Source: a virus
Lineage: Duplodnaviria > Heunggongvirae > Uroviricota > Caudoviricetes
Reading direction: 5' to 3' (one strand)
Length of the DNA: 16,600 bases
Virus record (IMG/VR): IMGVR_UViG_2654587792_000017
Below, piece by piece: positions 11,300-11,979 of this stretch; position 1 is the first letter of the stretch; each line of letters opens with the position of its first letter. Both the position numbers and the translations under genes were made by a program. The notes under the pieces were generated by a model. It made no database searches and had not been told where the DNA came from. It worked only from the letters and a program-made list of their open reading frames with translations.

Positions 11300-11674
11300 A
11301 TGAAAAAGGATCTGAAAACGCTGGCGCTGGCCAGACTGTCAGGGTTTCGTCATAAAACGGTGAAGGTGCCGGAATGGGGTAATGTCAGCGTGGTGCTGCG
11401 GGAGCCTTCGGCAGAGGCCTGGTATCTGTGGCAGGAAGTGCTCAATGGTGATGGAGAGGATGACGATACCCTGTCGGTGGTGGCGAAAACCCGCCGTAAC
11501 TTGGAAGCGGATGTGACGCTGTTCTGCGATGTCCTGTGTGATACTGACCTGCAACGGGTGTTCACTCCGGACGACCGTGAGCAGGTGCTGGCCGTCTATG
11601 GTCCGGTACATGCCCGGTTGCTGCGTCAGGCACTGGAACTGATCGCTGATGCAGAGTCGGCCAGAAAAAAGTAG
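11300..11674 (+). CDS. Tail assembly chaperone (lambda gpG-like)
   Basis: 124 aa from ATG 11300 with AAGGGGA Shine-Dalgarno (the listed ORF begins at 11252 but overlaps the upstream gene). Acidic protein directly upstream of the tape measure gene. It ends with the slippery heptamer A-AAA-AAG followed by TAG. Confidence 0.8.
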   Translation: MKKDLKTLALARLSGFRHKTVKVPEWGNVSVVLREPSAEAWYLWQEVLNGDGEDDDTLSVVAKTRRNLEADVTLFCDVLCDTDLQRVFTPDDREQVLAVYGPVHARLLRQALELIADAESARKK

Positions 11675-11979
11675 CCCGCCCGGAAATTCGATTTCTGATG
11701 CGACTTGCGCTCCGTCTGGGGCGCACCTTATCCGAACTGCGGCACAGCCTGAGTGCGAGCGAGGCGATGATGTGGATGGAGTTTGACAGGGTGTCCCCGC
11801 TGGGTGATGAGCGCGGGGATATCCGTAATGCACAGATCGTGAAAGCGGTTTTCGGGGCACAGGGGATGAATGTTGCACTGAAGGACGCCATGCTCTGCTG
11901 GGGCGAGGATGAGGATAAGCCGGAGGTGGATCCGTTTGCGGCGCTGGAAGACGCGCTGAGCTTTGCAGCACAGTCATGA
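11300..11979 (+). CDS. Tail assembly chaperone frameshift fusion (lambda gpGT-like), made by -1 frameshift at 11665-11671
   Basis: After a -1 slip the frame reads K-K-V-A-R-P-E-I-R-F-L-M-R-L... into the 93-aa ORF 11698..11979. That ORF has no Shine-Dalgarno of its own and ends just before the tape measure gene. The arrangement matches the conserved G/GT pair of long-tailed phages. Confidence 0.75.
11665..11671 (+). promoter_or_regulatory. Programmed -1 ribosomal frameshift slippery site A-AAA-AAG
   Basis: Heptamer A AAA AAG at 11665-11671, immediately before the chaperone stop (TAG 11672-11674). The -1 frame is open from here and continues into ORF 11698..11979. Confidence 0.8.

Follow-up and report, generated by a model that had tools for sequence, protein, structure and literature searches.

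A G/GT-type programmed −1 ribosomal frameshift very probably joins the tail assembly chaperone to its T domain in a lambdoid E. coli prophage

Does the tail region of this Caudoviricetes sequence carry two small genes between its major tail and tape-measure genes, or one gene on which some ribosomes change frame? An ORF for a 124-aa chaperone is followed in the −1 frame by a 93-aa ORF, and the first-pass annotation proposed that the two are joined by a programmed frameshift and that the second should not stand as a gene of its own. Frameshifting of this G/GT kind is a textbook feature of long-tailed phages. In what follows, the window is the whole 16,600-nt stretch of DNA that was analysed, and all features discussed lie on its plus strand. 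We conclude with high confidence that the locus is the HK97-like tail module of a lambdoid E. coli prophage of the Shiga-toxin type and that it carries a G/GT-type programmed −1 ribosomal frameshift. The site is already known, a cassette differing from it by one base having been measured in 2013, and it is real but ordinary. The sequence itself shows the anatomy, the domain assignments, a conserved frame and place of the slip, and missing start signals, and the measured efficiency of 7% and the mechanism known from lambda come from the literature.

A Pfam search placed the pair between a major tail (tube) gene (10569..11285) and a tape-measure gene (12027..15269), the upstream neighbor defining the G/GT position. 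The 238-aa major tail tube protein ends in a C-terminal Ig-like domain, with Ig_3, Ig_2, and I-set above the Pfam cut-offs. Phage_TTP_11 (24.6 bits against a cut-off of 28.4) and Phage_tail_2 (23.1 bits against 23.8) fell just under theirs. The counterpart of this gene in relative L010 is annotated 'major tail subunit'. Downstream, the 1080-aa tape measure protein matched PF06120 Phage_HK97_TLTM (305 bits), TMP_3 (196 bits), and Tape_meas_lam_C (65 bits), and it is the presumed partner bound by the products of the pair.

The first ORF of the pair (11300..11674, 124 aa plus TAG) encodes a G-like tail assembly chaperone as its standard 0-frame product. It matched PF06222 Phage_TAC_1 over profile positions 1-124 of 124 with 204.9 bits (gathering cut-off 25), as well as the tail assembly chaperone family phrog_344 and the solved HK97 chaperone PDB 2OB9 'Tail assembly chaperone' (E 4.5e-46). 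The program-made ORF list puts its start at 11252, within the major tail gene. We set the start at ATG 11300, because the Pfam match is full length, the near-identical copies in relatives L001 and L010 are deposited with their start at the matching base, and this codon is preceded by a Shine-Dalgarno sequence, AAGGGG (dG −8.4).

The end of this ORF holds the slip site. Positions 11660-11680 read GCCAGAAAAAAGTAGCCCGCC, and the final 0-frame codons are GCC AGA AAA AAG TAG. The heptamer A_AAA_AAG at 11665..11671 is made of the last two sense codons of G and lies in the X_XXY_YYZ phase, and the 0-frame stop TAG (11672..11674) follows it immediately. The first-pass annotation had placed the heptamer correctly to the base. 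It had also correctly described the −1 frame as open from the heptamer into the 93-aa ORF. That frame is open from 11650, after its last upstream stop (TGA, 11647-11649), and runs through ATG 11698 to the TGA at 11977-11979. A ribosome slipping here is predicted to make ...ESARKK-VARPEIRFLMRLAL..., a product of 226 aa in total, with exactly the junction ARKK-VARPEIRF that had been expected. The nine linker codons between slip point and ATG (11671..11697, VARPEIRFL) are translated in the fusion only. The GT coding sequence that we propose is join(11300..11671, 11671..11979), spanning 11300..11979 via a −1 ribosomal slip.

The heptamer stands out against the rest of the window. It is the sole in-phase canonical heptamer within G. 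When the 14 genes of the window were scanned, their 4,492 in-phase codon positions yielded 13 canonical heptamers, one of them of the efficient class (A_AAA_AAG, G_GGA_AAG, or C_CCA_AAG). This one falls on one of the six positions where slipping back by one base gives access to the entire T frame, an arrangement with a chance of roughly 0.1%. The −1 extension after it is 102 aa, against at most 40 aa after each of the other 12 in-phase heptamers, and we rejected those as candidate hidden frameshift genes. The other four AAAAAAG strings on the plus strand lie in the AAA_AAA_G phase, outside the slip phase.

The second ORF (11698..11979, 93 aa) corresponds to the T domain of the predicted fusion and is commonly annotated as 'phage tail assembly protein T' or 'DUF4035'. 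Fusion residues 152-222 matched positions 1-71 of the 73-position PF06223 Phage_tail_T profile with 66.6 bits (cut-off 25.9), and the ORF also matched phrog_337. The 224-position profile phrog_14766 covers G and T together. NCBIfam gave no match for the GT fusion.

Comparison with relatives showed that the arrangement is conserved. Among 25 related loci from other bacterial species, 24 have T in the −1 frame, and so do all nine distinct phage or prophage records (35-99% identity) drawn from the phage and E. coli collections. The relation of the two frames and the place of the slip both hold down to 35-38% protein identity. Taken with a Phage_TAC_1 and a Phage_tail_T domain lying between major tail and tape-measure genes, this bears out the proposal that the locus reproduces the conserved G/GT programmed frameshift. 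At the equivalent codon, the relatives carry A_AAA_AAG, G_GGA_AAG, G_GAA_AAG, GCA_AAG, or A_AAA_AAC. The shift-prone sites thus end in A_AAG, save for A_AAC in one relative, while the P-site half varies (AAA, GGA, GAA, GCA). Of 19 tabulated relatives, 10 have a stop codon immediately 3' of the slip.

Closer relatives gave a picture of polymorphism and frequency. Near-identical copies (92-100% identity) were collected by a scan of viral contigs, which serves as a polymorphism check only; the genome-contig search used a seven-sequence alignment. Across 26 distinct close variants, AAAAAAGTAG was unchanged, which is not significant by itself with 5.7% variable sites. The sole polymorphism found in 11671-11697 was A/C at 11691, synonymous in the −1 frame.

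Published measurements bear directly on this site. Antonov et al. 2013 (PMC3711429, Table S2) placed cassette 15618692 of GeneTack cluster Phage_TAC [862991913] in an E. coli GST-MBP reporter and recorded 7% ± 0.79 −1 frameshifting. The value belongs to a construct one base different from the window and to a reporter, not to the phage, and these two points count against the G/GT reading. This cassette corresponds to window positions 11645-11719 at 74 of 75 bases, the one mismatch being 11691 (C in the cassette, A in the window). The dual-reporter assay suggested by the first-pass annotation has thus in effect been published. The family was also catalogued by Sharma et al. 2014, whose Table S4 lists cluster A_AAA_AAG_25 (ECs1801, the tail assembly chaperone of E. 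coli O157 Sakai) as '[true]', that is, safely inferred. This cluster is probably the same family as the chaperone of the window, a link made through the gene description and through a note in the phiE125 record likening ECs1800 to gp12, the major tail protein of HK97.

Three other explanations of the split were weighed against a programmed ribosomal slip. T could be a separate gene, with ribosomes that terminate at the G stop re-initiating at ATG 11698, instead of or besides the fusion. This ATG is in frame and lies 23 nt past the stop, so some re-initiation may occur there; most relatives have an equivalent Met, and those of Bcep176 and phiE125 overlap or directly adjoin the end of G (ATGA, TGATG). 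All near-identical copies in the databases are also annotated as separate genes. The start signal argues otherwise. As the first-pass annotation had stated, the ORF has no ribosome-binding site of its own: we found no Shine-Dalgarno sequence before ATG 11698, where the most stable anti-Shine-Dalgarno pairing within 21 nt upstream is −3.5 kcal/mol, close to the median of −3.75 for all 386 plus-strand ATGs in the window, whereas the confidently called gene starts range from −5.8 to −12.8. The nine −1-frame codons from the slip site to the ATG are moreover kept as protein across genera (V-x-x-P-x-x-x-F-L-M/L-x-LALRLG). In X. santafensis, X. mauleonii, and Rahnella, Leu or Phe replaces the Met and the T frame has no ATG before codon 32-33, so T is not a stand-alone protein in these three relatives. 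The reporter cassette, which includes ATG 11698, gave the frameshift product, and the clusters for which internal initiation is reported do not include Phage_TAC (Antonov et al. 2013, PMC3711429). In lambda, the products described are G and GT only (Atkins et al. 2016). A separate T gene is therefore improbable in our assessment, and the claim that 11698..11979 should not be annotated as one stands, even though its RefSeq and GenBank copies carry two genes; the records of two relatives annotate a join.

The fusion could also be encoded at the RNA level, with RNA polymerase slipping on the A run and inserting or deleting an A in some mRNAs. Such realignment is documented on long A runs, for example the nine A of Thermus dnaX, and a run of six A is present here (11665-11670). 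Six is short of the roughly nine or more in the documented cases cited, and the two frames are retained in relatives whose sites, G_GGA_AAG, G_GAA_AAG, or GCA_AAG, have three or four A, a pattern that fits tRNA re-pairing rather than slippage of the polymerase. The G_GGA_AAG cassette of Antonov et al. 2013 (PMC3711429) gave a similar 6%. We consider polymerase slippage very unlikely. Still less credible, to the point of being negligible, is decay, in which the split would be a frameshift mutation or an assembly error in a once-single GT gene of a degenerating prophage. Many E. coli prophages are defective, and the G frame is indeed broken in Leclercia relative L097. Nevertheless, 1,246 of 5,426 complete E. 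coli genomes (about 23%, with up to seven copies per genome) carry a near-identical G/T split, as do 92 phage records, some of them deposited as phage isolates. It is retained across genera at the 35-38% identity given above, and the invariance of AAAAAAGTAG in the close variants also speaks against decay. Programmed slippage of the ribosome is the reading that we carry forward.

We then considered what raises the efficiency of the slip. Bare A_AAA_AAG gave 0.29% in Sharma et al. 2014 (Table S3), so the 7% of the cassette is about 25-fold higher, a gap that counts against the G/GT reading, although the two values come from different reporters. Upstream of the heptamer, no Shine-Dalgarno-like stimulator was found within 20 nt (best duplex dG −3.0 kcal/mol). 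Downstream, a weak hairpin (11677..11702) begins 5 nt past the heptamer, within the 5-9 nt spacing of stimulators of the dnaX/IS911 type; its −7.9 kcal/mol corresponds to z = −1.44, and 18 of 200 shuffles folded as well. The 96-nt fold 3' of the heptamer had z = −1.37. Downstream folds differed among 18 relatives (z from −2.0 to +1.2), with no common structure visible. We rejected a downstream RNA stimulator as a demonstrated element on these scores and on the differing folds of the relatives, and the hairpin, being neither significant nor conserved, is probably not a dedicated stimulator. For cluster A_AAA_AAG_25, Sharma et al. 2014 give 'N' for a conserved Shine-Dalgarno sequence and 'Y' for a predicted hairpin.

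The adjacent TAG (11672..11674) may act as a context stimulator of the slip. A broader idea is that the signal of this family is a minimal A_AAG tetramer at a fixed codon together with local context (here the adjacent UAG), and not the canonical heptamer. The turnover of the P-site half points this way, as does a cassette value of 7% against 0.29% with neither a Shine-Dalgarno-like nor a hairpin stimulator detected, yet we regard this idea as rather doubtful. If the stop codon, the nascent peptide, or an upstream mRNA effect gives the boost, an under-described class of stimulator would exist for G/GT sites.

HK97 gp13/gp14 is one of the closest known systems, with the same families as here, Phage_TAC_1 for G and Phage_tail_T for the extension. 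In the HK97-like phage HK446, the pair is about 60% identical to that of the window, and a joined CDS is annotated ('similar to Gp14 [HK97]'). As in the window, the HK97 and HK446 pairs follow the major tail gene and precede a tape-measure gene of the HK97 type, with T likewise in the −1 frame; in HK446, a small additional gene homologous to gp15 comes ahead of the tape-measure gene. The HK97-type relatives (HK446 and loci L091-L094) use G_GAA_AAG, with imperfect P-site re-pairing, and their 0-frame stop comes five codons further on, whereas the window has a perfect A_AAA_AAG and a UAG right after it.

A more distant counterpart is gp69/gp69' of Burkholderia phage Bcep176, with 42% identity to the GT query in tblastn and 38% for the G part in the alignment. 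Its heptamer, likewise A_AAA_AAG, falls on the corresponding codon, and the phage record gives a joined CDS described as equivalent to lambda G and T (gp69' 'lambda T equivalent'). Its 0-frame runs 11 codons past the heptamer, and its T-frame Met overlaps the G stop (ATGA), in contrast to the immediate UAG of the window. The heptamer of the E. coli dnaX gamma/tau site and its tRNA-Lys re-pairing logic are identical to those of the window. The dnaX site combines an upstream Shine-Dalgarno-like element with a downstream stem-loop, operates at about 50%, and yields a shorter shifted product; here neither a Shine-Dalgarno-like element (dG −3.0) nor a significant hairpin was found, the efficiency in the literature is about 7%, and slipping lengthens the product.

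Lambda G/GT resembles the window in that the chaperone gene lies between the major tail and tape-measure genes and gains a T domain through low-level −1 slippage close to the 3' end of the gene. Both T domains belong to PF06223, and the M- and L-like genes downstream in the window are lambda-like as well. The lambda slip site is G_GGA_AAG and its G protein belongs to a different Pfam family, Phage_TAC_2; Phage_TAC_1 is the sole TAC family that G of the window matched. The lambda frameshift is reportedly the subject of work by Levin, Hendrix and Casjens in 1993 and by Xu, Hendrix and Duda in 2004, 2013, and 2014. For lambda, the review by Atkins et al. 2016 gives G and GT at about 30:1, compared with the roughly 13:1 implied here by 7% on a cassette one base off the window. 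Lambda tail assembly requires both products, and neither is found in the mature virion (Atkins et al. 2016).

These comparisons suggest how the site would operate. Most ribosomes would read 11300..11674 and stop at the UAG; their product, the 124-aa chaperone, corresponds to HK97 gp13 and lambda gpG. A few in every hundred would slip back one base on A_AAA_AAG, with tRNA-Lys re-pairing from AAA/AAG to AAA/AAA. They would then read GUA GCC CGC and onward in the −1 frame to 11979, producing the 226-aa chaperone with its lambda-T-family domain. The ratio of short to fused product would be set by the heptamer and its local context, possibly including the adjacent stop codon. If the two proteins act as in lambda, their G parts would coat the tape measure protein, and the rare T domain would recruit the major tail protein so that the tube polymerizes to the correct length. 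Neither G nor GT would then remain in the virion. A role of G and GT in tail assembly of this phage is accordingly modeled on lambda.

The value of this result lies chiefly in annotation and little in biology, the site having been measured and catalogued before. Near-identical copies are annotated as two proteins, a 'phage tail assembly chaperone' and a 'phage tail assembly protein T' or 'DUF4035'. The exact 226-aa fusion was absent from a 15-billion-protein collection and present in no public collection searched. Since it is missing from protein collections, proteomics of Shiga-toxin-producing E. coli phage lysates cannot identify the 226-aa product. Folding of the surrounding sequence also revealed a terminator-like hairpin 3' of T.

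The 124-aa tail assembly chaperone gene (G, 11300..11674) ends GCC AGA AAA AAG TAG, with its stop at 11672-11674; the bases at 11660-11680, read directly, are GCCAGAAAAAAGTAGCCCGCC. A slippery heptamer, A_AAA_AAG, lies at 11665-11671 on the plus strand in the X_XXY_YYZ phase of the G frame. In the -1 frame, the final upstream stop falls at 11647-11649, and the frame is thereafter open up to the TGA at 11977-11979, passing through ATG 11698, the start of the 93-aa T ORF (11698..11979). The fusion predicted from a -1 slip, join(11300..11671, 11671..11979), has 226 aa and the junction ...AESARKK-VARPEIRFLMRLALRLGRTL.... 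The first-pass annotation had claimed that this heptamer joins the chaperone to a T-like extension, and its coordinates, phase, open -1 frame and junction all agree with those found here. The observation is confirmed and its frameshift interpretation supported. The mechanical ORF listing put the G start at 11252, within the major tail gene. The true start is 11300, because the Pfam match spans all 124 profile positions (1-124), near-identical copies are annotated from the equivalent base in their deposited records, and an AAGGGG Shine-Dalgarno sequence lies upstream (dG -8.4).

Canonical heptamers occur in phase 13 times among the 4,492 codon positions of the 14 genes of the window. Only that at 11665-11671 belongs to the efficient class (A_AAA_AAG, G_GGA_AAG, C_CCA_AAG), and it alone leads into a long -1 extension, of 102 aa compared with at most 40 aa for the other twelve. 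Six positions would let a -1 shift read the entire downstream ORF, and it occupies one of them. The four remaining AAAAAAG on the plus strand are all in the Lys-Lys phase AAA_AAA_G. E. coli genes show strong avoidance of A_AAA_AAG in this phase (z = -10.1; Sharma et al. 2014, Table S3).

The feature is not new: its family is known, the site catalogued and the cassette measured. Antonov et al. 2013 (PMC3711429) described a cluster of 41 "phage tail assembly chaperone" genes, resembling an HK97 protein, and assayed two members in E. coli with a GST-MBP reporter. The first cassette, with A_AAA_AAG, gave 7% ± 0.79 frameshifting, and the G_GGA_AAG member gave 6% ± 0.61. This cluster is absent from those with reported internal initiation in the same study. 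The ~7% cassette equals 11645-11719 of the window save one mismatch, at 11691, a position that varies between close copies without changing the -1-frame protein. Since the cassette was measured in GST-MBP, the dual-reporter experiment proposed in the first-pass annotation is in effect already in the literature. Sharma et al. 2014 marked cluster A_AAA_AAG_25 (53 genes, with the tail assembly chaperone ECs1801) as "[true]", stating that -1 frameshifting "can be safely inferred"; ECs1801 probably belongs to the same family as G of the window.

The arrangement is retained among relatives. A tblastn search with the fusion matched 230 phage records, and in rows spanning both halves the match always came in two pieces, in two frames. 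Comparison with eight divergent phages (G identity to the window 35-67%) and 25 loci from other bacterial species placed T in the -1 frame in all eight phages and in 24 of the 25 loci. The lone exception, Leclercia adecarboxylata locus L097, has a broken G frame, with an early TAA and an HK97-type 3' end continuing in a different frame, pointing to an indel or to prophage decay. In Xenorhabdus kozodoii (L095), the T frame has just 73 aa, compared with 96 in its relatives. The shift-prone site lies at the equivalent codon, in the ...EA-x-K-K terminus of G. A_AAA_AAG is found in the window, phi467, Proteus/Vibrio Pm34, Xenorhabdus, Rahnella and Burkholderia, and G_GGA_AAG in the Salmonella SP-016, mEp390 type. 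The HK97 type (loci L003, L091-L094) carries the non-canonical G_GAA_AAG, whose P-site re-pairing includes a G·U mismatch, and Salinicola (L114) the non-canonical A_AAA_AAC. The Klebsiella/Pantoea type (L005, L096, L098, L100, L112) reads GCA_AAG-stop (TAA), leaving just the A_AAG tetramer and the stop; in the Klebsiella type an ATG lies two codons past the slip, so the mode of T expression there is less certain. The slip sites have the core A_AAG in common, and of all tetramers this is the one most prone to shift in E. coli (Sharma et al. 2014).

Independent initiation of T at ATG 11698 is disfavoured, although it may supply a minor re-initiation product. As the first-pass annotation had held, this ATG has no ribosome-binding site: no Shine-Dalgarno sequence precedes it, and its best anti-Shine-Dalgarno duplex (-3.5 kcal/mol) is close to the median of -3.75 over the full set of 386 ATGs on the plus strand; starts called with confidence in the window reach -5.8 to -12.8 kcal/mol. 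The codons upstream of the ATG are also conserved, the -1-frame residues from slip to Met being kept as protein (V-x-x-P-x-x-x-F-L-M/L-x-L-A-L-R-L/M-G), and some relatives lack the Met. In X. santafensis, X. mauleonii and Rahnella, Leu/Phe replaces it and the first ATG comes at codon 32-33, deep in the T domain, so a stand-alone T protein is impossible there. The reporter result likewise speaks for frameshifting. Transcriptional slippage on the A run is unlikely, as the run has only six A and relatives with three or four A keep the frame arrangement. A mutational frameshift is excluded, since 1,246 of 5,426 complete E. coli genomes and 92 phage records show the same split and it is conserved across genera.

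Standard decoding halts at UAG and yields the 124-aa chaperone, and a -1 slip on A_AAA_AAG would give the chaperone-T fusion (GT). In lambda, the tape measure protein is bound by G, both free and as part of GT, and the major tail protein by the T domain; the G:GT ratio is critical, and the virion contains neither protein (Atkins et al. 2016). By analogy, G and GT of the window would have the same roles. No Shine-Dalgarno-like stimulator was found upstream of the heptamer (dG -3.0). Downstream, 11677-11702 can form a suitably spaced hairpin, but a weak one (-7.9 kcal/mol, z -1.44) that the folds of relatives do not share. The bare A_AAA_AAG heptamer without stimulators gave 0.29% in a lacZ reporter (Sharma et al. 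2014). Because neither an upstream Shine-Dalgarno-like sequence nor a conserved, significant hairpin accounts for the gap, the excess of the ~7% phage cassette over this value is unexplained. In 10 of 19 tabulated relatives the slip site runs straight into a stop, and the adjacent UAG may be a source of the higher efficiency; the differing assays (GST-MBP and lacZ) may also contribute.

Both halves of the fusion match known families: PF06222 Phage_TAC_1 at residues 1-124 (204.9 bits) and PF06223 Phage_tail_T at residues 152-222 (66.6 bits). The G part matches PDB 2OB9, "Tail assembly chaperone" (E 4.5e-46). The 224-position profile phrog_14766 covers G and T together, which means that relatives have been deposited in fused form. 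Joined CDSs are annotated in HK446 ("similar to Gp14 [HK97]") and Bcep176 (gp69', "lambda T equivalent"). The first-pass annotation had questioned annotating T as a separate gene, and RefSeq and GenBank copies do carry two genes. As separate proteins, G and T are each found on at least 1,000 contigs, and the exact 226-aa fusion is absent from a collection of 15 billion proteins. The one useful residue of the finding is annotation, with two genes deposited and the fusion missing. Several E. coli records give a 94-aa member of the T-protein cluster (P0018, the protein of 11698-11979) the name "preprotein translocase subunit SecA", an evident error spread through databases.

The entire window is the late region of a lambdoid Shiga-toxin-type prophage, with ~96% identity to Stx1a-converting phages and phage JLK-2012 across 98-99% of its length. 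Its genes run from HNH endonuclease through small and large terminase, protease-capsid fusion, portal and connectors to the tail genes. The G/T pair follows a major tail protein with an Ig domain and precedes a 1080-aa HK97/lambda-type tape measure protein, followed by genes resembling lambda M and L. In the gap from the T stop (11979) to the tape-measure start (12027), a hairpin at 11985-12008 (core AACCGC-TGAG-GCGGTT; 9 pairs when folded, then seven T; -10.8 kcal/mol, z -3.19) looks like an intrinsic terminator; it was found by folding and not picked up by a consensus terminator scan. Rho-independent terminators are marked at the corresponding sites in the HK446 record. A second terminator-like hairpin at 10532-10546 (CCCGC...GCGGG and a T run) folds weakly (-8.5 kcal/mol, z -1.62) and lies between the tail completion protein gene (PF11367; "tail terminator" in the JLK-2012 annotation) and the major tail gene.

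Directly upstream of the small terminase gene, 668-1009 and 1383-1748 encode a small protein with a TonB C-terminal domain (55.9 bits) and the HNH endonuclease. The 645-aa ORF at 4301-6238 combines a prohead protease domain (Peptidase_S78, residues 48-152) with an HK97-type major capsid domain (386-635). The head-gene order is unusual, the portal gene (6450-7814) lying downstream, not upstream, of this ORF. No Pfam family reaches cut-off for the 407-aa ORF at 7811-9034. JLK-2012 RefSeq labels its equivalent "portal protein", probably a misannotation; it is the preceding ORF that truly matches Phage_portal (272.6 bits).
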